NCBI GenBank assembly: GCA_963817955.1
Contig: CAWFQK010000002.1
Coordinates: 64,001 to 128,000, forward strand
Reading direction: 5' to 3'
DNA length: 64,000 nt
From: an uncultured Gemmatimonadaceae bacterium
GTDB lineage: Bacteria > Gemmatimonadota > Gemmatimonadetes > Gemmatimonadales > Gemmatimonadaceae
The translations under genes were made by a program, and so were the position numbers. Of the stretch, positions 3,612 to 19,932 are shown one piece after another (position 1 is the stretch's first letter; every line of letters begins with the position of its first letter). The notes under the pieces were generated by a model. The model had not been told where the DNA came from, searched no databases, and saw nothing but the letters and a program-made list of their open reading frames with translations.

Positions 3612-4600
3612 GTGAAGTCATCGTTGTCACGGGAGCCTCGGCCGGGCTTGGCCGGGCCATCGTCCAGCGTTTCGCGCGCGACGGATGTGCTATCGGATTG
3701 ATCGCGCGTGGTCCCGATCGCCTGGAGAGCGCACGCGCCGAGGTGGAAGCGCTCGGTGGAACGGCGTTGGCGCTGCCGCTGGACGTCGCCGATGCCGACG
3801 CGGTCGAGGCGGCAGCGGAGCGCGTGGAACGCGAGCTCGGGCCGATCGACGTGTGGATCAACAACGCCATGGTGTCGGTGTACTCGCCGATCAAGCAGAT
3901 GACGGCGGCGGAGTTCCGCCGCGTGACCGAGGTCACGTATCTGGGCTACGTACATGGGACCCTGGCCGCGCTCTAGCGCATGCTGCCACGCAACCGGGGA
4001 ATCATCATCCAGGTCGGGTCAGCACTGGCGCACCGCAGCATTCCGCTCCAATCGGCGTATTGCGCGTCGAAACACGCGATCATGGGTCTTCACGAATCCT
4101 TATTGAGCGAGCTCCTCCACGACGGGAGTCGCGTGCGTACGACCATGGTGCAGATGCCCGCGATGAACACACCGCAGTTCGATTGGGCAAAGAGTCGCTT
4201 GCGAAACCAGACGCAACCCGTCCCTCCGATCTTCCAGCCTGAAGTGGGGGCGGACGCGGTGCACCATGTCGTTCGTCACGACGTCGGTCGCGAGTTTCTT
4301 GTCGCGTGGCCGACCACCGAAGCCGTGTTGGGGGAGAAGATTGTGCCGGGATATATCGATCGCAAGCTCGCGCGAGGCGGATACCAGGGCGAGCAGACCG
4401 GCGAGCCGGCGGATCCGGATCGGCCGAACAACCTCTGGAATCCTGTGGCGGGCGATTTCGCCGCGCACGGGCGGTTCGACGACCGCTCCCACGACGTGAG
4501 CGTTGAGCTGTGGGTTGCCAAGCGGAAACCGTGGTTGATGGTCGGCGGCGCGTTGATGCTGGGTGCGGCGCTCGCCGCACGTCGGACCGACCAGCAATGA
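3608..4600 (+). pseudogene. SDR family oxidoreductase interrupted by one in-frame TAG (3974-3976)
   Basis: TGASAGLG and NNA before the stop, YCASK after it, same frame; ATGA overlaps with both neighbours. Confidence 0.8.
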
Positions 4601-6984
4601 TCGCGGCGCGCGGTGTAGCGCCAGGCGGTCCCGGGATTGCCCCTCGCTGGACGTCCAGCGCCAAGGCAGGCGTTGGCACGGCACTCGGCGCGCGCAGCAT
4701 GGTCTGGTTCACCATCTCGCATGGCATCGTGAACGAGGTCTACTACCCGCGCGTCGATCAGGCCGACATTCGCGACATGGGCATGATCGTGACCGCCGAG
4801 CCGGACTTCTTCGCGGAAGAACAGCGGCACACGCATACGGCGCTCGACCTGATCGCGCCCGGCGTGCCGGGATTTCACGTCACAAATACGTGTGCGCGCG
4901 GCCGGTTTCGTATTCACAAGACGCTGATCACCGATCCCGATCGCGACGTCCTGCTGCAAGCCACGGAGTTCGTGCCGGTGATCGGTTCGCTGGACGATTA
5001 CCGCTTGTTCGTCCTGCTCGCGCCGCACCTCGCGAATCAGGGAGAGGGCAATGATGCGTGTGTCGGCGAGTACAAGGGCATTCCCATGCTGTTCGCGCAG
5101 CGCGAGAGCGCCGCACTGGCACTGAGTTGCTCGGCGGACTTTGCCGCGCTGAGCTGTGGCTACGTCGGCGTGAACGACGGTTGGCAGCAGCTTGCGCGTG
5201 CCCGTCATTTGACGGAATGTTATGCCGCTGCGCACGACGGGAACGTTGCCGTGACGGCCGAGATTGATCTCAGCCACAGCAACGGCCGCTTCGTCCTGGC
5301 ACTTGCATTCGGCCGTGATCAGGACGAAGCGGCCCATGCGGCGCGCGCGTCGTTACTCGCGGACTTCAACGACACGTGCAACAGCTTCGTCGCCGGATGG
5401 CGGTCGTTCCACGCTCGTTCGCGGCGGCTCTCGCACAACGACGACATCGCGACGGAGTACGGACTCAGCGTGGCGATCTTGCAGTCGCATGAAGACAAGG
5501 TTCGTCGGGGCGCATTCATCGCGAGCCTCTCGATCCCGTGGGGCAACGAGCGCGGCGATCACGACCTGGGCGGATACCATGTAGTGTGGCCGCGCGATCT
5601 CGTCGAGGTCGGCGGCGGGCTCCTGGCCGCGGGCCACACGGACTCGGCGCGCTACGCCCTGCATTACCTCATGACCACTCAGGAGGCCGACGGCCATTGG
5701 CCGCAGAACATGTGGCTGGACGGACGCGCCTACTGGACCGGCAATCAACTCGATGAAACAGCGTCCCCCATTCTGCTCGCCGATCAACTGCGTCGCCGCC
5801 GCGCCCTCGAGAGCTTGAATGTATGGCCGATGGTCCGCCGCGCCGCGGGATATCTCGCTCGCAACGGTCCCGTGACCCCGGAGGACCGATGGGAGGAGGA
5901 CGGCGGCTACTCCACGTTCACCCTCGCTGTCGAGATCGCGGCGCTGCTCGCGGCCGCCGACTTTGCCGATCTCGAGCACGATGAAGCGGCCGCGAGATAC
6001 CTCCGGGAGACGGCGGACATCTGGAATTCGTCGCTCGAACGATGGCTCTATGTCACCGGCACCGCCCTCGCCGCACACGTTGGCGTCAATGGCTACTACG
6101 TCCGTCTTGCACCGTCAACCGTTCGAGACGGCGACTCCACGATCGCCGTAGCCAATCAACCCCCTGGTAGCGACCGAATACGCTATGACGACATGGTGAG
6201 TCCGGACGCCCTGGCCCTGGTCCGCTTCGGCCTTCGCGCGGCGGACGACGAGCGGATTCTGAACACGGTGCGCGTCATCGATCGCCTGTTATGCACGGAC
6301 ACCCCCACCGGGCCGATCTGGCACCGGTATAACGACGATGGATATGGCGAGCACGAGGATGGTGCGAGCTTCGACGGCACGGGTATCGGACGGGGATGGC
6401 CGCTGCTCGCCGGCGAGCGAGCACATTACGAGCTCGCCGCCGGCCGCGCGGATCGCGCGGCCCACCTGCTCGAAGTCATGCGACGACAGACGGGGCTTGG
6501 CGGGCTCATACCTGAGCAGGTGTGGGACGCTGCCGACATCCCCGAGCAAGGTTTGATCGCCGGCTGCCCGACCGGCTCCGGCATGCCACTCGTGTGGGCG
6601 CATGCCGAATTTGTAAAGCTCGCGCGATCGCTTCACGACGGCCGCGTCTTCGACACGCCGCCGCAAACCACGAAACGCTACATCAGGTCGCGGATCCCAT
6701 GCCGGATGGCGACATGGCGATTCAACAACAAGATCCGCGCGATCGCGTCTGGACACAGCCTTCGGCTCGAAGCACAGGCTCCGTTCATGGTCCACTGGTC
6801 CGTCGACGCGTGGCGCTCCCCTCAAGACAGCGAGGGAACCGACACCACGTTGGGCATGTGGTTTGTCGATCTACCGACCGACTCACTTCCCGTGGGCGCT
6901 GCCGTGTCCTTCACGTTCTATTGGCCCGAAGCTCGCCGCTGGGAGGGAACAGACTTCGTCGTGCGAATCGAAGACCGGCCATAG
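4597..6984 (+). CDS. Glycoside hydrolase family 15 (glucoamylase/glucodextranase-like)
   Basis: APGGPGIAPRW N-domain, YHVVWPRD, DRWEE, LIPEQVW, PLVWAHAEF. Confidence 0.9.
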   Translation: MIAARGVAPGGPGIAPRWTSSAKAGVGTALGARSMVWFTISHGIVNEVYYPRVDQADIRDMGMIVTAEPDFFAEEQRHTHTALDLIAPGVPGFHVTNTCARGRFRIHKTLITDPDRDVLLQATEFVPVIGSLDDYRLFVLLAPHLANQGEGNDACVGEYKGIPMLFAQRESAALALSCSADFAALSCGYVGVNDGWQQLARARHLTECYAAAHDGNVAVTAEIDLSHSNGRFVLALAFGRDQDEAAHAARASLLADFNDTCNSFVAGWRSFHARSRRLSHNDDIATEYGLSVAILQSHEDKVRRGAFIASLSIPWGNERGDHDLGGYHVVWPRDLVEVGGGLLAAGHTDSARYALHYLMTTQEADGHWPQNMWLDGRAYWTGNQLDETASPILLADQLRRRRALESLNVWPMVRRAAGYLARNGPVTPEDRWEEDGGYSTFTLAVEIAALLAAADFADLEHDEAAARYLRETADIWNSSLERWLYVTGTALAAHVGVNGYYVRLAPSTVRDGDSTIAVANQPPGSDRIRYDDMVSPDALALVRFGLRAADDERILNTVRVIDRLLCTDTPTGPIWHRYNDDGYGEHEDGASFDGTGIGRGWPLLAGERAHYELAAGRADRAAHLLEVMRRQTGLGGLIPEQVWDAADIPEQGLIAGCPTGSGMPLVWAHAEFVKLARSLHDGRVFDTPPQTTKRYIRSRIPCRMATWRFNNKIRAIASGHSLRLEAQAPFMVHWSVDAWRSPQDSEGTDTTLGMWFVDLPTDSLPVGAAVSFTFYWPEARRWEGTDFVVRIEDRP

Positions 6985-6996
6985 GAACCTTGGACC

Positions 6997-7647
6997 ATGG
7001 CTGCGCTCTTTCCGCCCTGGGCAAATGTGCTCGCGCGAGGTTCGCTCATCGCCGCGGCCATTGCCCTCGTCGGCCTGCCCGTCGCCCTCATGGCGTGGGT
7101 GCGCACGCCCAACGCGGTCCGTCGATACCAGCCTGTCGCGCAACCGGTTCCGTTCGATCATCGCGTGCACGTCACCGGCGAACACATCGATTGTCGGTAC
7201 TGTCACTTCTCCGTCGAGCGCTCATCGACCGCCGGGATCCCGCCGACGGTCACGTGTATGCCCTGTCACAGTGAGACCTGGTTGAGCTCGAGCACCCTGG
7301 CTCCGGTACGCCGAAGCATGGAGACGAATCAGCCCCTGCGCTGGAATCGCGTGACGTCGCTGCCCGGCTTCGTCTATTTCAATCACGCGATCCACGTCAA
7401 CAAAGGCGTTGGATGTGAGACCTGTCACGGTCGCGTGGACCAGATGGGCGCGGTCTATCAGGCCGAGCCGCTGACGATGAACTGGTGCGTGTCGTGTCAT
7501 CGCGATCCTGCCGCGCAACTTCGGCCGCTCTCGGAGATCACGGCGATGGGCTACGTGCCCGCCGAATCACAACGCACCCTGGGTAGCCGCCTCGTTCGCG
7601 AGTATCACGTGCGGCAGTTGACCAACTGCTCCACCTGCCACCGGTGA
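6997..7647 (+). CDS. actA: Alternative complex III pentaheme cytochrome c subunit
   Basis: N-terminal TM helix, five CxxCH motifs, QPVPFDH, first gene of act cluster. Confidence 0.92.
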   Translation: MAALFPPWANVLARGSLIAAAIALVGLPVALMAWVRTPNAVRRYQPVAQPVPFDHRVHVTGEHIDCRYCHFSVERSSTAGIPPTVTCMPCHSETWLSSSTLAPVRRSMETNQPLRWNRVTSLPGFVYFNHAIHVNKGVGCETCHGRVDQMGAVYQAEPLTMNWCVSCHRDPAAQLRPLSEITAMGYVPAESQRTLGSRLVREYHVRQLTNCSTCHR

Positions 7648-7651
7648 GCGC

Positions 7652-10507
7652 ATGCACCATCACGATCCCCATCATGACCATGACCATGACCACGACCACG
7701 ACCACGACCATGACGACGATGTAACGCGCCGAAGCTTCCTCAAGGCGGCGCTCGGCGCGAGCATGGCGGCGCTCGCCGGTCTTGATGGGTGCACGCGCAT
7801 GCCAGCGGAGAAGATCTTCCCGTATGTCAACCAGCCGCCCGAGCTGACACCCGGCGTTGCGGTACACTACGCGACGTCAATGGTGCTCGACGGGTATGCG
7901 ACCGGGCTGATCGTCGAAGCACATGAAGGCCGGCCGACGAAGATCGAGGGGAATCCCGACCACCCCGCCAGCCTCGGTGCGTCCGGCATGCTCGAGCAGG
8001 CATCGCTGCTGCAGCTCTATGACCCGGACCGCGCGAGTCGCGTGCGATCCGGATCGTCAACGGAGAGTTGGCCAGCCTTCGCGTCGGCAATGGCCCCCTC
8101 GGCATTGCGGCCACGCGTCGGCGCGCGAGGCGCAGGGTTGGCATTGCTGCTCGAGCCAACCTCGTCGCCACTCATTGCCGCGCGAGTCGACGCACTGCAC
8201 ACGATCTATCCCGACATGCGCGTCTTCTACTACGCGCCCTTGCAAGCGGGCACCAGCGATGCGGCATTCACGAGTGCCGGCGTGATCCCGCAATTCGCCA
8301 TTCGCGATGCCAGGGTCATCCTCAGCGCCGGATCGGACTTCCTCGCCACGGGTCCATTCCATCTTCGTTACGCACGCGACTTCGCCGATGGACGACGCGT
8401 TCCGGCCAGTGGCATGAACCGGCTGTACGTAGCGGAGTGTGATTACACCGTGACGGGAGGCGCGGCGGACCACCGACTCCCGTGTCGACCGGAAGATCTC
8501 GAGTCCCTGCTGGAGTCTGTGCTCACCCTCCTACGTGGCGGCACCGGCACGTCAGCGTGGAGCACTGCCGTGGGCGCCGACTTGAAGGCGAATGCCGGGC
8601 GAAGCCTCGTCATTGCCGGTGAACGCCAACGCCCGCGCGTGCACGCGCTCGTCGCAGCGATCAATGATACGCTTGGCAACACGGGACGAACCGTTTGGTT
8701 CACGCGATCGTTGCTCCCGGGTGCGGGTGAGGCGAACGCGTCGATCTCCGCATTGGCCGGCGCCATCGCTGGTGGCGGGATCGACACGCTCGTGTGCATC
8801 GGCGGCAATCCGTCATACGCGACCCCGGGCGCGCTGCAGTTTTCGACGCTGCTCCGCCGCGTGCCGAACACCGCGTACGTCGGGCTCTATGAGAACGAGA
8901 CTGCGCGCGACTCCAAATGGTTCGTACCCGCCTCGCATTATCTCGAATCGTGGGGCGACGCGCGCGCCTACGATGGCACGTACTCCATCGTTCAGCCCCT
9001 GGTCCAACCGCTTCACGGCGGCAAGTCACCAGCCGACGTGCTGTCCGCATTGGCGGGCCAACCTTCGGTCGATTCCCGCGTGCTGCTACGCGATGTCGCA
9101 TTCAAGAATGATGTCGAGGCGACGGACGCGGGTTGGGCGGCCGCGCTCGGTCGCGGATTTGTCGTTGGGCCGGCGCTTTCGCACGTCACGGCTGTCCCGC
9201 GTGCCGAGTTGCTCATGCCAAGAGGCGGCACGGCAAGTGAAGCCGGCGCCCTCACGATCGTCTTCGAGCGAGACGCACGGGTGCACGATGGGTCGTTTGC
9301 CAACAACGGATGGCTGCAGGAGCTCCCGGATCCGATCACCAAGCTCACGTGGGACAACGCGGCGCTGCTGAATCCTCGAGACGCCGGGCGACTGGGGGTC
9401 TCGACCGGCGACGTCGTCCAGTTGTCGCACGGCAGTGCTTCGCTCCGCATACCAGCGATCGTCGTCCCCGGACACGCGGCAGGCGCGGCGACGGTGCGTT
9501 TCGGGTACGGGCGAGCGGGAGCGGAGTCCGTGGCGCGCGGTGTAGGTGTGAATGTCAACGTCCTGTGGCCAGCCCCGGACATGTTCGTGCTGAGCGACGT
9601 CGCGATCGCTCGGGCACCGGGTGGCGAACATCACGACTTCGCGATCACGCAATGGCATTGGACCATGGAAGGGCGCGGCCAAGCGAGAGAGGGTACGCTC
9701 GCGGCGTACCAGGCGGGGCATGGCGCGAACGTCAGGCGACAGCGACGTACGCTCACGATCTATGATCCGCCGCACCGTCTGGACGCGCCTCAACAGTGGG
9801 CGATGACGATCGATCTCGGGACCTGCATCGGCTGCAGCGCCTGCGTCGTGGCCTGCCAATCAGAGAACAACATTCCCGTCGTCGGTCCGGAGGATGTCGC
9901 CAAGTCTCGCGAGATGCAATGGCTCCGCATCGATCGCTACCTCGAAGGTCCCGAGGATGATCCGCGTGCGATCACGCAGCCGATGCTCTGCCAGCATTGC
10001 GAGAATGCGCCGTGCGAGTACGTGTGCCCGGTGGGCGCCACGACACACAGCGCCGATGGACTCAACGAGATGGTGTACAATCGATGCGTCGGCACGCGGT
10101 TCTGCTCGAACAACTGCCCGTACAAGGTGCGGCGCTTCAACTGGTTTGACTACAACGCACGCCTGAGCGAGACGGAGCAGCTCGGCAAGAACCCGGACGT
10201 CACGGTGCGCGAACGCGGCGTGATGGAGAAATGCACGTTTTGCGTGCAACGCATTCGCGAGGCAGAGATCGCGTCCGGAATTGACGGCCGGCCTCTCCGC
10301 GGGAGCGAGGTCAGGACGGCGTGCCAGCAGGCTTGTCCAACGAACGCGATCGTGTTCGGGTCCCTCACCGAGCCTGATTCTCCAGTCGTCCGCCAGCGCG
10401 ACGACCCGCGGGCGTATGCCGTGCTCGCCGAGCTCGGCACTGTTCCGCGCATCGAATACTTGGCCCGTGTGCGCAACGTGAACCCTGCATTGGAGCCGCG
10501 CGCGTGA
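7652..10507 (+). CDS. actB: Alternative complex III subunit B (molybdopterin oxidoreductase-like domain + Fe-S domain), Tat lipoprotein
   Basis: TRRSFLK...[18 protein letters not shown], four Cys clusters ([35 protein letters not shown]...CQQAC). Confidence 0.93.
7655..7720 (+). repeat. CAYGAC hexamer repeat encoding a His/Asp tract
   Basis: Encodes [22 protein letters not shown] at the ActB N-terminus. Confidence 0.9.
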
Positions 10508-11925
10508 GTATCGCCGTCCGACCCGTATCGGGATCCTCCACTCATGGCAGCGATCAGTGGCCGGTGATGCGTGGCCAACCGGCGGCGGGGGCGCTGACAG
10601 ACCATCTCCTCGCCCCCTTATGGCGCACATCGCCGGCCTGGTGGTTTCTCTTCGGCCTGTCGTCGCTGGGCACGCTGCTCCTGCTCGTGACCGTCACGTA
10701 CACGGTTGCGAGAGGAATTGGCGTCTGGGGCAACAACATCCCGGTCGCATGGGCGTTCGCGATTACGAACTTCGTCTGGTGGATCGGGATCGGTCACGCC
10801 GGCACGTTCATCTCGGCATTTCTCATCCTGCTCAACCAGCGTTGGCGCGGCTCCATCAATCGCGTCGCCGAGGCGATGACGATCTTCGCGCTCGTCAACG
10901 CGGCGCTGTTCCCGGTGCTGCACCTCGGACGGCCGTGGTTCTTCTACTGGCTCGTTCCCTACCCGGCCACGATGAACGTGTGGCCGAACTTCAAGAGTGC
11001 GTTGCCGTGGGACGTCTCGGCGGTCACGACGTACTTCACGGTGTCACTGCTCTTCTGGTATCTCGGGTTGGTGCCGGATCTGGCGTCGGCGCGCGATACG
11101 GCGCCGACGCGGGCCAAGCGGCTCATCTACGGCGTGTTTGCCATGGGCTGGCGCGGTTCCAGCTTTCAGTGGCAGCGGCATCGCGTGGCCTACATACTGC
11201 TCGCGGGCCTTGCTACCCCGCTCGTCATTTCGGTGCACAGCGTCGTGAGCCTCGACTTCAGTATCGCGCAGTTGCCTGGCTGGCACTCGACGATCTTCCC
11301 GCCGTACTTCGTCGTCGGTGCCATCTACTCCGGGCTGGCGATGGTATTCGTGCTGTTGCTGCCGGTGCGCCGCGCGTTTGCGTTGCATGACATCATCACC
11401 AAGGCGCACCTCGACGCAATGGCCAAGCTGATGCTGACGATGGGCCTCATGCTCACGTACAGCTACGTCATCGAGACGTTCATGGCGTGGTACAGTGACA
11501 ACGCGGCCGAACGATACACGTATCTCATTGCTCGCCCGGCAGGTCCGTACGCCATCGCCTATTGGATCATGACTGTGCTCAACGTCGGTACGCCTCAGCT
11601 CTTCTGGGTGCGCCGGTTTCGCACGAGCCCTGCGGTCTTGTTCGTCGCCTCGATCGGCATTCTGGTCGGCATGTGGATGGAACGGTTCATCATCATCGTC
11701 ACGTCGCTCAATCGCGACTTTCTCACGTCGAGCTGGCACCTCTACGTGCCAACGTGGGTGGACTGGGGCATCCTTACGGGTAGTCTCGGACTGTTTGGCT
11801 TCCTGTTCCTCCTGTTCGTGCGGTTCGTTCCGAGCGTGGCGATCAGCGAAGTGAAGGCACTGAGTATCAAGCTCGCCGCTAGCGCCGCTGCAGCACAGCG
11901 CGCCGGGAAGCCGAACGATGCGTGA
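10504..11925 (+). CDS. actC: Alternative complex III subunit C (NrfD/PsrC family quinol-binding subunit)
   Basis: [40 protein letters not shown] overlap with actB. Confidence 0.93.
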
Positions 11926-12457
11926 TCGAACGTGGAGCAGTGGCGCCTATCTCGCCGAGTTCGGGTCGGCAGACGAGGCTCGGCGCGCCATCCAGGCGCT
12001 CGAAGAACATGGCTACACAGGCATCGAGACGTATTCGCCCGTCCCGATCACGCACGGGCTGAAGCAGAGCAGGTCTCGACTTCCCATAGTGGTCTTTCTC
12101 GCCGGACTGGGCGGCGGCATCGCGAGCTATGCAATTCAATGGTATGCCGACGCCTACGCGTACCCACTCGACATCGGCGGCCGACCCGCCCACGCCGTTC
12201 CCGCCTTCATCATTCCGACGTTCGAGGGCACGGTACTGTGCGCAGCACTTGCTGCTTTCTTTGGATTCTTCGTCATCACACGACTGCCGCAGCCATATCA
12301 TCCCGTGTTCGAGATCGATGGATTCGAGCGCGCCACCGTCGATCGCTACTGGATCGCAGTCGATGCAGCCGATCACCGCTCTTCTCCGGACCTGACCCCG
12401 CGGGAGCTCTATCGGCTCGATCCGCTTCGAGTGGTCACGCTCGAGGCCGCGACATGA
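11918..12457 (+). CDS. actD: Alternative complex III subunit D (DUF3341)
   Basis: LAEF...ETYSP, two TM helices, IGGRP...[18 protein letters not shown]. Confidence 0.9.
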
Positions 12458-13098
12458 CCCGAACGCTGCGCTGGCCGGTCGTGATCCTTGTCGCGCTCGT
12501 GGCAGGATGTACAGCGTCCCGCGAACGCGAGCGCGTCGACTTCGAGCGAATGCGTATCCAGCAACGATACGGCCTGTACGGCGCGAGCAGGGTCTTTTCC
12601 AACGGGCAGAGCATGCAGCAGCCACCAGCAGGGACGGTGAGCCGTGAGGCAGCAGCACAGATGCTCAGCACCGGCATAGATGAAGCGGATTCAGCGTCCA
12701 CAGTCAGCGTGACCACCATTCCCTTGCCTGTGACACCGGCCTTGTTGGACCGCGGCCGAAACCGCTTCGCCATCTATTGTGCAGTGTGCCACGGCGCGGG
12801 GGGCTTTGGAGGCAGCCTCGTCGCGGCGAACATGGGCCAGCCACGTCCGCCGTCGCTGCGCACGGCCATGATGCGCACGCATCCAGTGGGATACATCTTC
12901 GGTGTGGCAACGCACGGCAAGGGGCGCATGCCCCCGTACGCGCCGCAACTCACGCCTGACGATCGCTGGGCGATTGTCGCGTACATTCGGCAACTGCAGG
13001 CGACTGGAGCGCTGACGCCTGACGAACGCGCCGACTCGCTCCGCGCCCAACAACTCCGTACGATCGATTCGATCGCGGCGGCGGAGCGTCCGCGATGA
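12454..13098 (+). CDS. actE: Alternative complex III monoheme cytochrome c lipoprotein
   Basis: Lipobox LVAGC, PPAGTV, CAVCH, MPPY; ATGA overlaps. Confidence 0.9.
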   Translation: MTRTLRWPVVILVALVAGCTASRERERVDFERMRIQQRYGLYGASRVFSNGQSMQQPPAGTVSREAAAQMLSTGIDEADSASTVSVTTIPLPVTPALLDRGRNRFAIYCAVCHGAGGFGGSLVAANMGQPRPPSLRTAMMRTHPVGYIFGVATHGKGRMPPYAPQLTPDDRWAIVAYIRQLQATGALTPDERADSLRAQQLRTIDSIAAAERPR

Positions 13099-14255
13099 AG
13101 GCCCCGCTGCCGACATCATGGATCCGTGTTGCGCTCGTTGGCGCAATCTGCATGATCGTGGGTTTCATCGTCGCGCCTGCGCGCGCAGCCGCCGCCTACC
13201 TCGTCGCGTATGGTGCCTGCGTCGGCGTGGCACTCGGCGCGCTGGCCCTCGTGATGATCGCGCGAGTCACAGCCGCCAATTGGTTCGTTGCCATTCGCCG
13301 GCAGGCGGAGCAGATCATGGCGACCTTGCCGGTGTTTGCGCTGCTGCTCATACCGGTGCTGCTGTCGAGTCGTCTCCTCTACCGATGGACCGCGCCGAAT
13401 GAGCGGCTGCCCGAAACGACTCGCGTGGCGGTTCACGCCACGGCGGCGTATTTGAACACCCCGTTCTTCGTGGTGCGAGCGCTCGTCTATTTCGGCGTAT
13501 GGATACTCATTTCCACGTTGCTGCGGCGTGCCTCGCTGGCACAGGATCGCGGGGATTCGCCGGCGCTCGAGCGACGCATGTACGTGGTGAGCGCCATCGG
13601 GTTGGTCGCGTTTGCGTTCACCGTGAGCTTCGCGGCCTTCGACTGGTTCATGTCATTGTCGCCAGGATGGTACTCGACGATTTACGGCATCGATTACTTC
13701 GCCGGGGCCATGGTCGGCGCGCTGGCACTCGTCACCGTTATTGTCGCGGCCGAGCGCCGCCATGGCGTGCTGCCGTCTGAGATCGGCTCCGATCACTTCC
13801 ATGCGCTTGCCAAACTGCTGCTCACCTTCGTGTTGTTCTGGGTCTACATCGGCTTCGCGCAATTGATCGTGATCTGGAGCGCTGAGATCCCCGCAGAGCG
13901 CGGCTGGTACGCATTGCGCATGCGTGGCGGTTGGCGCGTACTCGGCGCGATCGTGCTGCTCGGCCACTTCGCCCTTCCCTTCTGTGCGCTGCTCGTCCGC
14001 GCCATCAAACGCAGCCCAAGCGCGATGGCGATCATTGGGGCGTGCCTGCTCGTCGTGCACTATCTCGACATGTATTGGGTGGCCATGCCCGACGCGCCGT
14101 TTACCGGCGGGTGGGGTGTGGCGCTCGACGCTGGCGCATTGCTGTTCATCGCCGGCACTGCCGGTGCCACATGGGTGATACGGCGTGCCGGCGAGCCGAG
14201 CGTCGCCGAGGGCGATCCGCGATTGCCCGACTCGCTCCAGTACTCCGTCGAATAG
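13095..14255 (+). CDS. actF: Alternative complex III subunit F (membrane subunit)
   Basis: ~10 TM helices, YLN.PFF..R, DWFMSL.P.WYSTIYG, Q.IVIW. Confidence 0.88.
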   Translation: MKAPLPTSWIRVALVGAICMIVGFIVAPARAAAAYLVAYGACVGVALGALALVMIARVTAANWFVAIRRQAEQIMATLPVFALLLIPVLLSSRLLYRWTAPNERLPETTRVAVHATAAYLNTPFFVVRALVYFGVWILISTLLRRASLAQDRGDSPALERRMYVVSAIGLVAFAFTVSFAAFDWFMSLSPGWYSTIYGIDYFAGAMVGALALVTVIVAAERRHGVLPSEIGSDHFHALAKLLLTFVLFWVYIGFAQLIVIWSAEIPAERGWYALRMRGGWRVLGAIVLLGHFALPFCALLVRAIKRSPSAMAIIGACLLVVHYLDMYWVAMPDAPFTGGWGVALDAGALLFIAGTAGATWVIRRAGEPSVAEGDPRLPDSLQYSVE

Positions 14256-14264
14256 AGGCTGGCG

Positions 14265-14765
14265 ATGAAGGTGAGGCGCGCGCTCTTTTCCGGTGTCATC
14301 GGATCCGTACTCGTCCTGATTCTCGTGTGGATGGGCGGCAGGCTCGGCGACGCCGACGCCGACCTCGCGGCATTGACTGCCGCTGTGCTGTTCCGAAACG
14401 CCGCTGGCGCCGCTTGGGTCGGAGGGTTCGTCGCACAACTCATCGTCGGCGCGATCGCCGGCGTGGTGTACTGCGGAATCTTCGAGCTCGTGACCGAGCG
14501 CGCGGGTGCGTGGATCGGCCTCGCGGTCGCGATTCCGCACGCGATCATCGCGGGCCTCGCCGTCGGCTTTCTGCCGGCACACCGGATGCTCGATGCAGGC
14601 GTCGCGCCTCCGGGTGCATTTTATGAGTTTCGTGGTGCTTGGTGCATCGCGGCCTTCGTGCTCGCCCACCTTGCGTTTGGATGCTCGATCGGCGCCATGT
14701 ATGGGCAAACGACACACACCTACGCTCGCGTGCGACGGCATTGGGCCGAGGCGTCACGCGTCTGA
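14265..14765 (+). CDS. Hypothetical multi-pass membrane protein
   Basis: 166 aa with several hydrophobic segments, RBS-like GAGG, co-directional with the operon. Confidence 0.7.
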   Translation: MKVRRALFSGVIGSVLVLILVWMGGRLGDADADLAALTAAVLFRNAAGAAWVGGFVAQLIVGAIAGVVYCGIFELVTERAGAWIGLAVAIPHAIIAGLAVGFLPAHRMLDAGVAPPGAFYEFRGAWCIAAFVLAHLAFGCSIGAMYGQTTHTYARVRRHWAEASRV

Positions 14766-14858
14766 TGAGGCTCGGCGGGTCGGTATGCTTTTTGTACATC
14801 GACGGTTCTCGCCGCAACCCGGCACTTCCACCCGGGCCTGCCGCTTTGGAGCGCTATC

Positions 14859-16757
14859 GTGACATCGATTGCCGACCGGATCAGTGAGGATGATCTCGCC
14901 CTCGAGCACCGACTCACCGATCTGTGGCAAACACCGCACAATTGGCTTGGGTGGCTGTCCACGGTCGATCACAAGACGCTTGGCAAGCGGTACATCTATA
15001 CGGCCTTTGGATTCTTCTTCCTCGGCGGTGTCGAAGCCACGATCATGCGCACCCAGTTGGCGCGCCCGGACAATCACCTCCTGTCACCCGGCGTGTACAA
15101 CCAGCTCATGACGATGCACGGCGTGACGATGATGTTCCTCTTCGTTCAGCCGGTGCTCTCGGGCTTCAGTTTCTATCTCACCCCGCTGATGATCGGTGCG
15201 CGCGAGTTGGCGTTTCCGCGGTTGAACGCGTTCAGCTATTACGTGTTCCTGCTCGCTGGCGTGTTCATGTACGCGAGCTTCGCCGTTGGACAGGCCCCGA
15301 ACGCCGGATGGTTCAACTACACCCCGCTCGCGAGCGTGAACTACAACCCCGGCTTCAACATCGACTTCTACTGCCTGGGACTGATGTTCCTGGGGATCGC
15401 GACAACCGTCGGATCCGCGAACTCGATCGTCACGATTCTCAAGCTTCGCGCGCCTGGCATGTCGATCGACCGCATGCCGCTGTTCATGTGGAGCTCGTTG
15501 ACGGTATCGGTGGCGGTGATCTTCTGCATGCCCCCACTCACCGCCGCGCTCGGCTTCCTCGAGTTGGAGCGCCGCTGGCACTTCGTGTTCTTCGACCCCA
15601 CGCATGGCGGATCTGCACTCCTCTGGCAGCACCTCTTCTGGGTGTTTGGTCATCCGTGGGTGTACGTCGTATTTCTGCCGGCCACGGGAATGCTCTCGAT
15701 GGTCATTCCCACGTTCTGCCGTCGGCCAATGGTCGGACACGTCTACATGGCTCTGGCGACGGTCGCGACTGGGCTGATCGGCTTCGGCGTATGGGTTCAC
15801 CACATGTTCGCGACCGGACTGCCGCAACTGTCCATGAGCTTCTTCGGGGCCGCGAGCATGACCGTCTCCATTCCCAGCGCGGTCACGATCTTTGGCTGGC
15901 TGGCCACGATGTGGTACGGCCGCGTGGTGTTCGCCACGCCAATGCTGTTCGCAATGGGGTTCATCTTTCAGTTCGTCATCGGAGGTATCAGTGGTGTGAT
16001 GACGGCCGCCGTGCCGTTCGATTGGCAGGTGACCGACACCTACTTCATCGTCGCGCACATTCACTACGTTCTCGCCGGCGGCACGCTGTTCGGCGTGATG
16101 GCGGCGATCTACTACTGGGCGCCGAAGATGTTCGGCGTCATGATGAGCGAAGCGCTCGGGAAGCTGAGCTTCTGGCTGATGTTCATCGGTTTCAACGTCG
16201 CCTTTTTTCCGATGCACATCAGTGGGCTCATCGGCATGCCACGCCGCGTGTACACCTACAGCGCCGCCAGCGGGTTCGCGTCGATGAATCTGCTCTCGAC
16301 GATCGGGACCTATATCCTCGCCGTCGGACTCCTGGTCACGCTCTGGAACTTCATTCGGAGCCGTCTCGCGGGCGCCCCCGCCGCCAGCAACCCATGGGGT
16401 GCGGCGTCGCTCGAGTGGCTCACGGCATCACCACCAGAGCATTTCGACTTTGCTCATATTCCTGTCGTTCACTCGCGTGAGCCACTCTGGGATGGCGGCT
16501 ACTCGCAAGGGCCCGCCTTTGACGAGGCGCGGCTCACGCCGCGCACGTCCGCGCTCGACGCGACGCTCGAGGAGCCGGTGGTGATGCCGACCGACAGCGT
16601 GTGGAGCATCCTCATGCCGTTCACCCTGCTGCTCGCCTGTGCGGCGCTGCTCGTGCATTCGTACACCTGGGCAGCGATCGGAGCCGCCGCGACTCTAATC
16701 TGCATGGCGCGCTGGATGTGGCCGAGTTCCGCGCGGGTGCTGAAGACTGAAGTATGA
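14859..16757 (+). CDS. ctaD: Heme-copper oxidase subunit I (A-family-like scaffold, non-canonical proton channels)
   Basis: MTMHG, GHPWVY, VWVHHM, AHIHY, GMPRR. Confidence 0.93.
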   Translation: MTSIADRISEDDLALEHRLTDLWQTPHNWLGWLSTVDHKTLGKRYIYTAFGFFFLGGVEATIMRTQLARPDNHLLSPGVYNQLMTMHGVTMMFLFVQPVLSGFSFYLTPLMIGARELAFPRLNAFSYYVFLLAGVFMYASFAVGQAPNAGWFNYTPLASVNYNPGFNIDFYCLGLMFLGIATTVGSANSIVTILKLRAPGMSIDRMPLFMWSSLTVSVAVIFCMPPLTAALGFLELERRWHFVFFDPTHGGSALLWQHLFWVFGHPWVYVVFLPATGMLSMVIPTFCRRPMVGHVYMALATVATGLIGFGVWVHHMFATGLPQLSMSFFGAASMTVSIPSAVTIFGWLATMWYGRVVFATPMLFAMGFIFQFVIGGISGVMTAAVPFDWQVTDTYFIVAHIHYVLAGGTLFGVMAAIYYWAPKMFGVMMSEALGKLSFWLMFIGFNVAFFPMHISGLIGMPRRVYTYSAASGFASMNLLSTIGTYILAVGLLVTLWNFIRSRLAGAPAASNPWGAASLEWLTASPPEHFDFAHIPVVHSREPLWDGGYSQGPAFDEARLTPRTSALDATLEEPVVMPTDSVWSILMPFTLLLACAALLVHSYTWAAIGAAATLICMARWMWPSSARVLKTEV

Positions 16758-17323
16758 GTACTCTCAAGTCGCAGGTCGGCTGGTGGGGCATGGTCATCTT
16801 TCTCCTCAACGAGGGGGCGCTCTTCGCGTCACTGCTCGCCAGCTACTTCTATCTCGGCCTCGCGAACGCATTCTGGCCCCCCGCGGGAACACCGAAACCG
16901 GGGCTCACGCTGCCGCTCATCATGACGGCCGTCCTGCTCTCCAGCAGCGTCGTCTGCATCCTCGCCGAGCGAGCGCACACCCGCGGCAACAAGCCCGCGT
17001 ACCGGGCCGGCACGCTCGCGACCATGCTGCTCGGCCTCGTCTTCCTGCTGATCCAGGCGCGCGAGTACCACAATAAGCTCCAGCATGCCGGCCCAACCGG
17101 CCATGCGTACGAATCGATCTTCTTCACGATTACGGGCCTGCACGGGGCGCACGTCGCGTTTGGCCTGCTGTTCCTGGGCTGGGCGTTGCTGCGCGAGTGG
17201 CGCGGCACGGCGCCGCCTCGCCGCTCGCTCGCGATCAAGAATGCGTCGGCCTATTGGCACTTCGTCGACGGCGTGTGGCTGGCAATCCTGACGTCGCTGT
17301 ACCTCTCGCCGCGTTGGTACTAG
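16754..17323 (+). CDS. ctaE: Cytochrome c oxidase subunit III (short form)
   Basis: FLLNEGALF, TGLHGAHV, YWHFVDGVW. Confidence 0.9.
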   Translation: MSTLKSQVGWWGMVIFLLNEGALFASLLASYFYLGLANAFWPPAGTPKPGLTLPLIMTAVLLSSSVVCILAERAHTRGNKPAYRAGTLATMLLGLVFLLIQAREYHNKLQHAGPTGHAYESIFFTITGLHGAHVAFGLLFLGWALLREWRGTAPPRRSLAIKNASAYWHFVDGVWLAILTSLYLSPRWY

Positions 17324-17332
17324 GAGCCGCTC

Positions 17333-17761
17333 ATGACTGCCTCGCAAGCAACGCATGAAGCACGGCTGCAGGACCTGCCCGTCGGACTCACACGCTTGTG
17401 GGCTGGCGTTCTTGCCGCACCAATCGCTTGGGTCTTGATGGAAATGGTCGGCTACTATTTGGCAGCGCGGAGCTGCGAGCCGGGCACCGGCGGCGTTCCC
17501 TTGCTCGGCACCGCCGCGCCGCGCGTCACGCAGGTGGTGTTGGACGTCGTCGCGCTCGCGGCGGCGGTGTTTGGCCTGGTGCTCTCGATCGGAAGCCGGC
17601 GTGCCCTACAGCCGCAGCCCCCCCGTGACTCGACACCCGAACAGGGCCGCGCCCATTTCATGGCGCTCGTCGGTGTCTTCACGAGCGCACTCTTTATCGG
17701 CGGAATCGTCCTGTTCGGCATCCCGCCCTTTCTCGTGAACGCCTGCAGCCAGGCCCGCTGA
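17333..17761 (+). CDS. Hypothetical 3-TM membrane protein of the oxidase cluster
   Basis: LWAGVLAAPIAW...Y....C, C-terminal Cys; abuts next gene. Confidence 0.75.
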   Translation: MTASQATHEARLQDLPVGLTRLWAGVLAAPIAWVLMEMVGYYLAARSCEPGTGGVPLLGTAAPRVTQVVLDVVALAAAVFGLVLSIGSRRALQPQPPRDSTPEQGRAHFMALVGVFTSALFIGGIVLFGIPPFLVNACSQAR

Positions 17762-18921
17762 TGATCGCGGCCGCGTTGGCGCTGACGGCGCTCGTCTATG
17801 CACTTGGGCTGAGGGCCGCGTGGACGCGTGCCGGGAACGGGCGCGGTATCACGCGAGCGCAAGCGGCAGTATTCGCGGCGGGGCTGTTCGTCATTGCGGC
17901 GGCATTGCTGTCACCCCTCGACGCCATGGCTGATGATTTGTTCTCCGCGCACATGGTGCAACACCTCCTGCTTGCCGTCGTCGCGCCGCCCTTGTTGGTA
18001 TTCGGGGCGCCGTTCACCGCGGTCGTCTGGGCACTGCCGTTCCACCGGCGCCTCGCGGTCGTCCGTTTCGTTCAGCGTCGGACGGCTCTGCGCGCGCTAT
18101 GGCTCACGATAACGGCCCCCCGCCTCGGCTGGCTCCTACACCTTGTTGCGATGTGGGCGTGGCACGCACCGGCGCTGTTCCAGATGGCACTGCATAACGA
18201 CGCCATCCACGCAGCCGAGCATCTGTCGTTCGTAGGCACCGGCGTGCTCGTTTGGTGGCCAATCGCTCATCCGCGAACGGCGCGCCGTACGGCATACGCG
18301 CTTGGCATCGCAACGCTGTTCCTGACCGCGATGCAGACCGGCGTGCTCGGCGCACTCATCGCACTGTCGCACCACGTGCTCTATCCCGCGCAGGCAGCCG
18401 GCGCCGCGCGATGGGGACTATCGGCCATGGACGATCAAACGCTGGCGGGACTGATCATGTGGGTGCCCGGTGGACTGCTGTACGTGGCGGCGATGAGCGT
18501 GTTGTTCGTGAAGTGGCTGCAGCCAGCGAAGCCACGTCATGCGCCTGCACGTCTCGCGCCCTCGCTCGCGAGTTCCATTCTGGTGATGATCGTCATCACT
18601 GCCACGGCGTGCTCGGGCACCGACGTGAGCGTCGTTCCCGGGGGAGACGTCAGCCGCGGCAAACACGCGATTGAAGCGACGGGCTGCGGCGCCTGTCATA
18701 CGATCAGCGGCGTTCCGAACGCACACGGCGAGGTCGGCCCCCCACTCACCGGCATCGCTCGGCGCTCCATCATCGCGGGCGAACTCGCGAACACGCCGGA
18801 CAACATGATACGCTGGATCCAGAATCCGCAGTCGGTCGAGCCGAACACGGCGATGCCGAACCTCGGTGTCAATGCGCAGGCGGCGCGGGACATCACGGCC
18901 TACCTGTTCACGTTGCGCTGA
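17761..18921 (+). CDS. ctaG: Caa3-type CtaG assembly factor fused to a c-type cytochrome
   Basis: FSAHMVQHLLL, WAWH.P, DQ.LAGLIMWVP, then CGACH...AMPNL. Confidence 0.85.
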   Translation: MIAAALALTALVYALGLRAAWTRAGNGRGITRAQAAVFAAGLFVIAAALLSPLDAMADDLFSAHMVQHLLLAVVAPPLLVFGAPFTAVVWALPFHRRLAVVRFVQRRTALRALWLTITAPRLGWLLHLVAMWAWHAPALFQMALHNDAIHAAEHLSFVGTGVLVWWPIAHPRTARRTAYALGIATLFLTAMQTGVLGALIALSHHVLYPAQAAGAARWGLSAMDDQTLAGLIMWVPGGLLYVAAMSVLFVKWLQPAKPRHAPARLAPSLASSILVMIVITATACSGTDVSVVPGGDVSRGKHAIEATGCGACHTISGVPNAHGEVGPPLTGIARRSIIAGELANTPDNMIRWIQNPQSVEPNTAMPNLGVNAQAARDITAYLFTLR

Positions 18922-18933
18922 GCGACGAGTGAT

Positions 18934-19924
18934 ATGATCCGGATCCGCCACGGTAGCGTGCTCCTGGCGCTGGTCGTCGCCACGTCGTGCGGAACGCCAC
19001 TGTCGATGTTTTCGACAGCGAGCGAGTCTGCGGAGCGCATCTCGAGGCTCGCATGGTTCATGATTGTCCTGTCCGCAGTGATCTTCGTCGCCGTGGTGGC
19101 GATCATGGCCGCGGCGGCGATCCGCAATCGGGCGCGCAATCCAGCGGACGTTGATCTCACCGATCCGGGCGCTGGGTGGATCGTTTGGGGCGGCGCGGTG
19201 CTGCCGGGCATCGTGTTGCTGGCAACCTTCACCGTCGCGATGGCGGCGATGGGCCGCTTTCCTGCGTCGCGGCCCGTTGTGACGATTCACGTCACGGCAC
19301 ACCAGTGGTGGTGGCAAGCGGATTATGAGTTCCCGCAAGTGTCCCAGCAGTTCCACACGGCGAACGAATTTCACATTCCGGTTGGGCGCCCGGTGCGCTT
19401 CATCCTCACCAGCGCCGACGTCATCCACAGCTTCTGGGTGCCACAACTGCAAGGCAAGCTCGACGTGATCCCGGGCGACACAAATGATCTTCGGCTCATT
19501 GCCAGGCGCGCGGGACGATACGCCGGCGCGTGCGCCGAGTACTGTGGAGCGCAACACGCACACATGGGGTTCACGGTGGTCGCCGAAGACAGCGCATCGT
19601 TCGCACGTTGGGCCGCCGGGCAGCTCGCCAATGGAGCGCAACCGAAGGATTCACTCACAGCCGAAGGGCAGAGGCTGTTCGTTACTGGTCCGTGCGCATC
19701 GTGTCACACGGTTCGCGGGACACCAGCGTTCGGACAAGTCGGGCCGGACCTCACACACGTCGGCGGTCGTCTCACGATCGCCGCGGGCACGCTGCCGAAC
19801 ACGCTCGGGAATATCGAAGGCTGGATCGCCAATCCCCAATCGCTCAAGCCGGAAACCAAGATGCCAACGTTGAACGTGTACACCGGAGCGCAACTTCGCG
19901 CCCTGGCCAGCTACATATCGAGCC

Positions 19925-19932
<8 letters not shown>
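18934..19932 (+). CDS. ctaC: Cytochrome c oxidase subunit II with C-terminal cytochrome c (caa3 type)
   Basis: HQWWW, DVIHSFW, CuA motif CAEYCGAQHAHM, CASCH. Confidence 0.93.

Follow-up and report, generated by a model that had tools for sequence, protein, structure and literature searches.

Oxidases with an HPWVY motif: a cross-phylum A-family branch with tryptophan at the channel glutamate position, encoded beside alternative complex III in a Gemmatimonadaceae bacterium

A stretch of 64,000 nucleotides from an uncultured Gemmatimonadaceae bacterium (GenBank assembly GCA_963817955.1, contig CAWFQK010000002.1, positions 64,001 to 128,000 of the forward strand), called the window below, encodes at positions 14859-16757 the subunit I (CoxI) of a heme-copper oxidase in which tryptophan takes the place of the glutamate of the HPEVY motif. 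In sequence comparisons CoxI is an A-family scaffold with intact metal sites, and in phylogenetic trees the oxidases carrying HPWVY are a monophyletic, cross-phylum branch of the A family. By alignment, three ionisable residues of the textbook channels have been lost, namely the HPEVY Glu, the helix-VIII Lys and the Glu of subunit II, and within the clade both channels keep their neutral polar lining, in which Ser and Thr are enriched. As read from the genes, the operon of alternative complex III (ACIII) is complete, and the electron input through CuA and cytochrome c and the O2-reducing site are intact. The explanation that is slightly preferred as a whole is that of an accessory, O2-reducing caa3-type oxidase of the HPWVY clade, which would be fed by ACIII and in which pumping would be reduced or gated differently. 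A bolder statement, tentative and rather doubtful, would be that an A-family O2 reductase works here without an ionisable residue in either input channel, with an invariant Trp at the Glu branch point, and has been re-plumbed to quinol via ACIII.

The open reading frame (ORF) of CoxI lies on the + strand, encodes 632 amino acids and matches the Pfam COX1 profile with E 2.6e-146. The closest solved chains in a sequence search were A-type (E 1e-139 to 1e-131), these relatives being the mycobacterial and corynebacterial aa3, the Bacillus subtilis aa3-600 and the Thermus caa3 oxidases; 1m56_A was also among the matches (query 78-535 to chain 93-555), and the Thermus ba3 chains reached only E ~1e-11 to 1e-12 with partial coverage. 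An AlphaFold2 (AF2) model of CoxI contains a 12-helix core, a beta-rich stretch at 533-575 and two added C-terminal helices at 582-620, and the best 50 matches of a Foldseek search of the PDB with this model all belonged to the A family. Against NCBIfam, CoxI was matched by the generic CtaD_CoxA model alone, at 670.8 bits for a cut-off of 670.75, and no subfamily model for the HPWVY type was found in that collection.

Residues were compared with the mycobacterial aa3 CtaD chains and with the canonical paralogue of the same genome (L001). The columns, equated by means of textbook motifs, presumably correspond to E286, K362, T359, D132, N121 and H411 of Rhodobacter sphaeroides. The six His ligands (87, 265, 314, 315, 400 and 402), Y269 as the Tyr of the helix-VI HPxVY, the GMPRR motif and the pair R462/R463 are present in CoxI; the ligands, the Tyr and GMPRR had already been reported in a first-pass annotation of the sequence, and the alignment confirmed them. 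FGHPEVY is changed to FGHPWVY, in which the Trp is W267, encoded by TGG at 15657-15659. The K-channel motif IPTGVKIF reads IPSAVTIF, with S340 and with T343 as Thr for Lys, and the D-channel entry GARDVAFPRLN reads GARELAFPRLN, with E116 for Asp and N123 unchanged. The helix-II Asn of the D-channel (FFNF in the paralogue) is F105, in the sequence GFSFY. Beside the Arg pair stand Y465 and T466, where canonical sequences have Pro and Asp. The replacements that the first-pass annotation had proposed for E286 (Trp), D132 (Glu), N121 (Phe) and T359/K362 (Ser/Thr) were all recovered in this alignment, and the A2 Tyr-Ser motif, which it had called missing, is indeed absent, the two residues being F263-G264. 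Its replacement of H411 by Thr is correct as far as T392 is a Thr, but the position carries no weight because the canonical paralogue has Thr there as well. Its description of both canonical channels as rewritten needs one correction, in that the D-channel of CoxI is altered only in part, with N123, N188, S126, Y45 and the acidic entry residue E116 retained.

The replacement is not confined to one genome. HPWVY was found in all 121 homologues of CoxI at 66% identity or more (117 with GHPWVY and 4 with AHPWVY). The Trp is therefore neither a sequencing error nor chance, and a private mutation is ruled out by the same count. These homologues are 66-87% identical, and the named ones are from Gemmatimonadaceae or Gemmatimonadales. 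A first tree comprised 107 rows, all full-length and with their ligands intact; they were taken from the best 150 representatives at 50% identity, ten close hits, CoxI and the paralogue. In it the Trp sequences form one clade of 13 rows with a Shimodaira-Hasegawa-like approximate likelihood ratio test support (SH-aLRT) of 98, and they also form one clade in a second tree of 80 rows (SH-aLRT 99). In the first tree this clade is nested in a clade of 35 rows (SH-aLRT 100), no member of which has the K-channel Lys, and the canonical paralogue of this genome lies in a neighboring clade with standard residues.

How far the clade extends was seen when one genome of each prokaryotic species was scanned with a pattern encoding FWxFxHPWVY, which misses variants such as the LAHPWVY form in L159. 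At least 120 HPWVY loci were obtained, and all 120 listed ORFs are homologous to CoxI at 48-72% identity. The listed loci span Gemmatimonadota, Acidobacteriota, Actinomycetota and Alpha-, Beta- and Gammaproteobacteria; they include the proteobacterial genera Paraburkholderia, Burkholderia, Caballeronia, Nitrosospira, Methylocystis, Methylobacter, Sphingomonas and Rhodanobacter, and further Acidobacteriaceae, Actinomycetota, Binatia, Myxococcales and Gemmatimonadaceae. The earlier guess of a clade that is widespread but poorly characterised is supported. In a sample of 201 Gemmatimonadota genomes, HPWVY stands in each of the 16 best matches (at least 55% identity), and the next 14 loci (50% identity or less) have HPEVY or HPDVY. 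Four of the 201 genomes are flagged as unpublished (G057, G182, G097 and G157); none is among the 16 carriers, and they bear only on the total of 201 and on one HPEVY motif. Homologues of CoxI were also found on many plasmids and chromids in a tblastn search of PLSDB, where 861 records, for the most part from Rhizobium, Sinorhizobium, Rhodococcus and Paraburkholderia, matched at E 1e-100 or better; the motif was read in one of these, the copy on plasmid p1 of Methylocella tundrae T4, which is of the Trp type. In the literature searched, which covered few subscription journals and was judged from titles and the openings of abstracts, no description was found of a natural Trp at the HPEVY Glu or of its combination with the loss of the K-path, and the string "HPWVY" did not occur in the text searched. 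The operon type and the K-channel loss are thus already known, and it is the Trp at the Glu position for which no description was found.

Conservation of the channels was followed in an alignment of 94 clade members (71 loci from the pattern scan, 20 close hits, two distant representatives and CoxI itself), set against 39 canonical and 18 sister-clade sequences. The acid at the D-channel entry is kept in 93 of the 94 (D70/E23), as are the N139 position and the helix-I Tyr of the channel (93 each); the N207 position is conserved in all, and the S142 position is Ser or Thr in 92 (S84/T8). The helix-II Asn is more variable (N62/F23/I5/V3), the Phe form marking the subclade of the window protein. 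Hydroxyls have been gained where canonical sequences have Gly, Ile or Leu, at T182 (91 members), T183 (86), S101 (86) and S104 (83). In the K-channel, the Lys position holds A47 Q24 T12 S7 G3 and Lys in no member; the T359 position is Ser or Thr throughout (S85/T9), S299 (S291/S299) is Ser in 92/94, S333 is Ser in 94/94, and T301 and T304 on helix VII are invariant, the latter position being Ile in 39/39 canonical sequences. The helix-VI Tyr is present in 94/94 with the three CuB His intact. Phe at 263 and Gly or Ala at 264, again in every member, leave no Tyr-Ser motif anywhere in the clade.

The first-pass annotation had allowed that an equivalent Glu or Lys might stand at neighboring positions. 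Such residues were looked for in all 94 rows, and none was found at the aligned columns, so that a compensating Glu or Lys nearby is ruled out at the column before the helix-II Pro (L34 Q22 S20 A12 F2), at the Tyr-Ser positions and at the Lys position. No new acidic residue was found by alignment in the D-channel helices II, IV and VI of the clade, and E59 on helix I is the sole new invariant acid. The Glu at the K-channel entry in subunit II (LEITW in the paralogue) aligns to a Trp in the CoxII of the window by BLASTP; in a MAFFT alignment of 90 CoxII rows (the window, 88 clade loci and one blank row), Glu stands at the entry column in a single row, where the register of the transmembrane segment is uncertain by one residue and the segment is without a conserved acid.

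B-type enzymes lack a D-channel, and the ba3 oxidase of Thermus thermophilus has a non-acidic residue at the Glu position. A single B-like channel was what the first-pass annotation had proposed for CoxI on the strength of its Ser/Thr pair. The resemblance of that pair to B-type enzymes agrees with the available text of Sousa et al. 2011 (PMC3084760), which gives Thr, Ser and Tyr at the Lys354, Thr351 and Ser291 positions, and T343 and S340 match two of these; the third is S280 in CoxI, without the Tyr. The Thr at the Lys position is, however, not a feature of the clade as aligned. The proposal of a single B-like channel is not supported, because the D-channel lining is constrained and, of the K positions, the first varies and the third is Ser. 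The low pumping or uncoupling that was suggested along with it may still apply. Hydroxyl residues at the Lys and Thr positions are common to CoxI and Thermus ba3 (PMC3084760, in the part available), but the two are distant (E 1e-11), and the HPWVY clade conserves the D-channel and has subunit III. For ba3, one channel is thought to be used, with lower pumping and higher O2 affinity, according to the portion of Murali et al. 2024 (PMC11214002) at hand.

The oxidase is encoded in an array of 12 genes on one strand (6997-19932), in which CoxI is the eighth and adjacent genes overlap by 1-8 bp or are separated by gaps of at most 93 bp:

6997..7647, + strand: ActA, the pentaheme cytochrome c of ACIII (Pfam Cytochrome_C7/CIII; 5 CxxCH)
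7652..10507, + strand: ActB, the molybdopterin-like/4Fe-4S subunit (Pfam Fer4 families, Molydop_binding)
10504..11925, + strand: ActC, the NrfD-type membrane quinol-binding subunit (Pfam NrfD, E 3.2e-23)
11918..12457, + strand: ActD (Pfam PF11821 ActD, E 1.7e-46)
12454..13098, + strand: ActE, a monoheme lipoprotein cytochrome c (Pfam Cytochrome_CBB3/Cytochrom_C; one CxxCH)
13095..14255, + strand: ActF-like polytopic membrane subunit, placed after ActE with a 4-bp overlap
14265..14765, + strand: membrane protein of 166 amino acids between ActF and CoxI, with no family match
14859..16757, + strand: CoxI, A-family subunit I (W267, T343, S340, F105, E116), with a C-terminal extension of two extra helices
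16754..17323, + strand: CoxIII, a short five-helix form (Pfam COX3, E 5.3e-28, profile positions 78-255 only)
17333..17761, + strand: membrane protein of 142 amino acids with two invariant Cys, a conserved neighbor of CoxIII
17761..18921, + strand: CtaG, the caa3-type assembly factor, fused to a cytochrome c domain (Pfam Caa3_CtaG, E 2.9e-56, Cytochrom_C; CGACH)
18934..19932, + strand: CoxII, with a CuA site and a C-terminal cytochrome c of the caa3 type (Pfam COX2 and Cytochrom_C; CASCH)

The CuA motif of CoxII is complete, with HSFWV and CAEYCGAQHAHM present, and the A-like scaffold with a subunit III and a caa3-type subunit II (CuA and cytochrome c), as described in the first-pass annotation, is borne out by this array. 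ActE would start at the Met preceding a lipobox-like signal. The ActF-like protein, which had no Pfam or NCBIfam match and a weak tblastn match in genome G131, is a candidate ActF by its position. For the protein of 166 amino acids, no tblastn match was found in 93 related loci, the two ACIII-linked relatives included; a feature search of the Atlas led to clusters containing DUF6789 (0.93), which is taken as a lead. The protein of 142 amino acids belongs to no Pfam or NCBIfam family, and its homologues were found directly after CoxIII in ~49 Trp-clade loci of several phyla, with C48 and C138 invariant in 33 aligned sequences. A complex prediction of this protein with CoxI/CoxIII scored 0.55 against 0.05 for the best control, with at least 86% of the contacts agreed between runs and a predicted local distance difference test value (pLDDT) of at least 71 for the partner. 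The mark applied was met by 116 of 157 solved complexes and by 2 of 215 mismatches, and scores of 0.60 or less comprise only 18 of the 157 solved complexes and both mismatches, so that the prediction lends weak support. It might serve as a fourth subunit, or it might handle copper next to CtaG.

The partners of the oxidase were counted in 78 pattern-derived loci longer than 3 kb, with neighbors scored within 10 kb. CoxII and the CtaG-cytochrome c fusion were each found in 76 of these loci and CoxIII in 74, and a methanol/ethanol-type dehydrogenase dependent on pyrroloquinoline quinone (PQQ) in 43. In the majority of carriers the neighbor of this oxidase is a periplasmic PQQ alcohol dehydrogenase of the XoxF type with its cytochrome c. 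Linkage to ACIII throughout the clade is ruled out, ActA, ActC, ActD and ActF being found in 0/78; two ActB matches were weak (61-91 bits) and stood without other Act genes. The ACIII-oxidase layout of the window recurs in the two closest of the 15 other Gemmatimonadota carriers, G131 (72%) and G095 (68%), with ActB homologues adjoining the oxidase in both; of the remaining 13, 11 have a PQQ dehydrogenase (11/15 overall). The window encodes no PQQ dehydrogenase, XoxF, XoxG or XoxJ, and PF01011 had 0 matches in this genome, which is 94% complete. Neither the ACIII operon upstream nor the usual PQQ dehydrogenase of the clade had been noted in the first-pass annotation.

In an 80-member tree of the clade, rooted on chosen outgroups alone, the three ACIII-linked genes lie in a Gemmatimonadota clade of 5 rows (support 100) together with two PQQ-linked genes, and PQQ linkage is spread over the entire clade (46 rows). 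A further clade of 23 rows, from Burkholderiaceae, Nitrosospira and Methylobacter (loci L005-L079), has neither PQQ dehydrogenase nor ACIII within 10 kb. In three of these loci that were scanned with Pfam (L005, L007 and L048), a protein of 458-565 amino acids with a C-terminal cytochrome c domain was seen near the Trp-type oxidase. That PQQ linkage came first and ACIII linkage later would be the parsimonious order, and it is parsimonious rather than proven because the root of the tree rests on the chosen outgroups. The ACIII-linked version shows that the oxidase module is portable between electron-input systems.

By position, ACIII is paired with the HPWVY oxidase, which would thereby receive electrons from quinol. 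ACIII as the sole route from quinol to cytochrome c is ruled out by three cytochrome b genes, three more NrfD matches and a second ActB-like gene, and for the same reason ACIII is regarded as one of several quinol-oxidising modules. The oxidase is likewise not alone. All 16 Gemmatimonadota carriers have at least one further A-family CoxI (E 1e-150 or better), so that the Trp-type enzyme is always an additional oxidase, and in this genome its companions are a canonical caa3 and a cbb3 oxidase. The latter (L003, G000:C5:65413-66696 region) has 752 amino acids with a CxxCH in its C-terminal part, and we take it to resemble a CcoN-CcoO fusion.

Several published systems resemble this arrangement in part. 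The COX operon type a-II, in the available text of Degli Esposti et al. 2014 (PMC4013037), has COX1 with a COX4-like tail, a five-helix COX3 and a COX2 often fused to cytochrome c; its cluster often contains a PQQ-dependent dehydrogenase, and Alpha- and Betaproteobacteria have this type in addition to a standard oxidase (PMC4013037). The C-terminal extension of CoxI, the five-helix CoxIII and the CoxII-cytochrome c fusion of the window correspond to this type, but a PQQ dehydrogenase is missing and ACIII stands upstream instead. The HPWVY clade may therefore be type a-II, to which it is likened by described features and not by sequences; the main text of PMC4013037 never uses the word "proton" and describes no changes of the channels. 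Furthermore, the XoxF3 systems of Acidobacteria, Gemmatimonadetes and Verrucomicrobia comprise, in the accessible part of Voutsinos et al. 2024 (PMC10875860), CoxI, CoxII, CoxIII, a hypothetical protein of ~110-130 amino acids between CoxIII and CtaG, CtaG and a cytochrome c. Region 14859-19932 equals this set gene for gene (PMC10875860, same part), although XoxF, XoxG and XoxJ are missing from the window and PF01011 from the genome; nothing on the channels of the oxidase stands in that part. The HPWVY oxidase is equated here, on gene content, with what would be the oxidase of the XoxF3 system.

Superoperons of ACIII with an oxidase are also on record. Type a-I COX operons are attached to ACIII and have a COX2-cytochrome c fusion (Degli Esposti et al. 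2014, PMC4013037), and superoperons of ACIII with A2 caa3 oxidases appear in the available text of Trojan et al. 2021 (PMC8407424). In the window, as in G131 and G095, actABCDEF likewise lies directly upstream of the cox genes on one strand, which makes for a compact chain from quinol to O2. The published superoperons, as far as these two texts (PMC8407424, PMC4013037) were available, carry A2-type oxidases or COX1-3 fusions, whereas the window oxidase is of the HPWVY type, similar to a-II, and its CoxI and CoxIII are separate genes with a 4-bp overlap.

Loss of the K-channel residues is known from elsewhere in the A family. In the oxidases of iron oxidisers the Lys and the COX2 Glu have repeatedly been lost and the D-channel retained, according to the accessible parts of 10.1101/2020.03.01.968255 and PMC8239418. 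The two cases agree in the loss of both residues and in the D-channel residues kept; those of the iron oxidisers, in the same parts of these sources (10.1101/2020.03.01.968255, PMC8239418), are A2-type by a classifier and stand in a rus operon context, and neither "tryptophan" nor "Trp" occurs in the texts of the two. Nearer to the HPWVY clade is a sister clade of 21 rows in the first tree, consisting of CoxI/III fusions of ~840 amino acids with Gln at the Lys position (representatives P0124-P0171 and loci L141-L146; one is named Actinomycetota, and members also occur in Gemmatimonadota). The two share an ancestor in the 35-row clade (SH-aLRT 100) and both are without the Lys, but the sister clade keeps the HPEVY Glu (or Asp) and replaces the Asn residues of the D-channel, with hydrophobic residues at the helix-II Asn and Glu at the N207 (mostly) and S197 positions. 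An A-family clade of 11 rows in the same tree (SH-aLRT 100; P0176, P0191, P0196, P0200, P0210, P0218, P0228, P0233, P0246, P0254 and P0261) is lysine-less too; its D-channel and Glu are standard, but Phe or Ser stands for the Thr and Ile, Met, Leu or Ala for the Lys.

A lead on expression comes from M. tundrae T4. The order of genes on p1 is PQQ dehydrogenase, substrate-binding protein, c-type cytochrome, oxidase assembly protein, c-type cytochrome, hypothetical, cox3, ctaD and coxB, and the CtaD has the motifs FGHPWVY and VPSAIAVF. In the available text of a study of this strain (bioRxiv 10.1101/2024.01.15.574570), an xoxF3 cluster is T4_00353-55, and the genes of an "aa3-type" oxidase, T4_00359-61, were up-regulated 17-60-fold in anoxic cells with methanol and N2O against O2-replete ones; the "aa3" oxidase is classed there as a low-affinity proton pump (10.1101/2024.01.15.574570). 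T4_00359-61 appear to be the HPWVY oxidase genes of p1, because the gene order agrees and the locus tags differ by a constant offset of seven. If the match is true, a Trp-type oxidase is expressed in this strain, and O2 deprivation induces it. Among public runs, no RNA run was listed for the sequence of the window; four soil-metagenome DNA runs of one study were, with shares of 0.08-0.17.

In the preferred explanation, electrons would pass from quinol to ACIII and its ActA/ActE hemes, from there to the cytochrome c domain of CoxII and to CuA, and finally over heme a to the heme a3-CuB-Tyr center and O2. That the enzyme reduces O2 is judged very probable, as it retains the Tyr cofactor that O2 reduction needs and that nitric oxide reductase (NOR) families lack (Murali et al. 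2024, PMC11214002, in the part at hand). Protons would enter from the cytoplasm along wires of water and hydroxyls, and continued use of cytoplasmic protons by an electrogenic enzyme seems likely, because the residues of the D-channel entry remain under selection. Without the Glu as branch point, pumping would more plausibly than otherwise be reduced or gated in a different way, and whether the oxidase would probably be used at low O2, as the scheme proposes, is an evenly balanced matter. Some points weigh against the scheme. In laboratory A1 enzymes, loss of the HPEVY Glu or of the Lys nearly abolishes activity, and a working mechanism must therefore be assumed. In the subclade of the window, the Phe at the helix-II Asn might close the D-channel. 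W267 is conserved in 94/94 partly by construction, 71 of the rows having been fetched by a pattern with the Trp codon; independent support for its conservation comes from the 121/121 homologues and the 16/16 Gemmatimonadota carriers. The AF2 model of CoxI, with a pLDDT of 70 and a predicted template modeling score of 0.77, is of moderate quality, and the tie to the T4 expression values was drawn by matching gene order and locus tags, not from a stated identity.

An enzyme that is fully coupled and pumps normally, with a D-channel working without a terminal carboxylate through the added Thr/Ser and water and with the Trp as a structural or gating substitute, is considered unlikely. Strong conservation of the D-channel entry and lining and the hydroxyls added at T182, T183, S101 and S104 speak for it, and in XoxF-linked carriers the oxidase would be the only coupling site for electrons from alcohol. 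A2 enzymes serve the D-channel without a terminal carboxylate by means of Tyr-Ser; this motif is absent here (F263 in 94/94, G or A at 264), however, helices II, IV and VI have no new acid, with E59 on helix I as the only new invariant one, the K-path is without both of its charged residues, and Y465 and T466 replace Pro and Asp beside the Arg pair. The three lost ionisable residues, the constant company of a canonical oxidase in 16/16 carriers and the induction of a homologue under O2 deprivation could also be read as signs of a non-electrogenic electron sink that takes periplasmic protons and serves for O2 scavenging, redox balancing or removal of excess reductant from periplasmic dehydrogenases or ACIII. 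This reading is rather improbable, as purifying selection on the cytoplasmic entrance of the D-channel (93-94/94) is hard to explain by it and subunit III is kept in 74/78 loci.

Reduction of NO or another oxidant in place of O2 is a still more distant prospect, and a poor one. NORs arose several times from oxygen reductases, often with altered channels (Murali et al. 2024, PMC11214002, in its available text), and the homologue in T4 was up-regulated in anoxic cells respiring N2O. The cross-link Tyr is nevertheless invariant and the three CuB His are intact, while those NOR families that have been described are without the Tyr and descend from the B or C branches (same part of PMC11214002); by both features, membership of the new NOR families is ruled out. 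Furthermore, no Glu ligand motif is present in CoxI, and no nir or nor genes were seen by Pfam within the 12-gene array. A decaying or inactive paralogue is hardly credible: residues essential in model enzymes are missing, but the frame is open, homologues are 66-87% identical and 120 of them share the substitutions, the partner genes are conserved across phyla and a homologue is transcriptionally regulated.

Almost every model of how A-type oxidases take up, gate and pump protons rests on the HPEVY Glu and the helix-VIII Lys. A natural clade without these two residues and without the Glu of subunit II would represent either a new solution for proton delivery or an oxidase of low coupling, and either outcome would inform how pumping is gated. 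Should the enzyme be active and remain electrogenic or a pump, its protons would have to be delivered and gated over neutral wires of water and hydroxyls, possibly with the Trp as the gate; in the lineage of the window, the oxidase would also have changed its electron source from a periplasmic lanthanide alcohol dehydrogenase to quinol, by way of ACIII. Culturable, non-pathogenic bacteria carry oxidases of the clade (M. tundrae T4 on plasmid p1, Paraburkholderia and Methylocystis), in which they are directly testable. Genes of this kind are routinely annotated as a low-affinity, fully pumping aa3/caa3 oxidase, as in the T4 study; for Gemmatimonadota and Acidobacteriota of soil and for methylotrophs, this may give a wrong picture of both O2 affinity and energy yield.

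Two observations concern other genes of this genome. Upstream of the ACIII operon, the window contains a fusion of FAD-linked oxidase, 4Fe-4S dicluster and CCG parts (633-3611, + strand, 992 amino acids) and a glucodextranase/GH15 protein (4510-6984, + strand, 824 amino acids), both seemingly unrelated to the oxidase. Outside the window, at G000:C1:379766-380137 (L004, ORF 1486-2001), a mini "oxidase-helix" membrane protein of 171 amino acids matches the COX1 profile (E 3.9e-9) over the first third of that profile alone. Immediately upstream of it is ORF 973-1434, which we take to resemble an Rrf2-type regulator.

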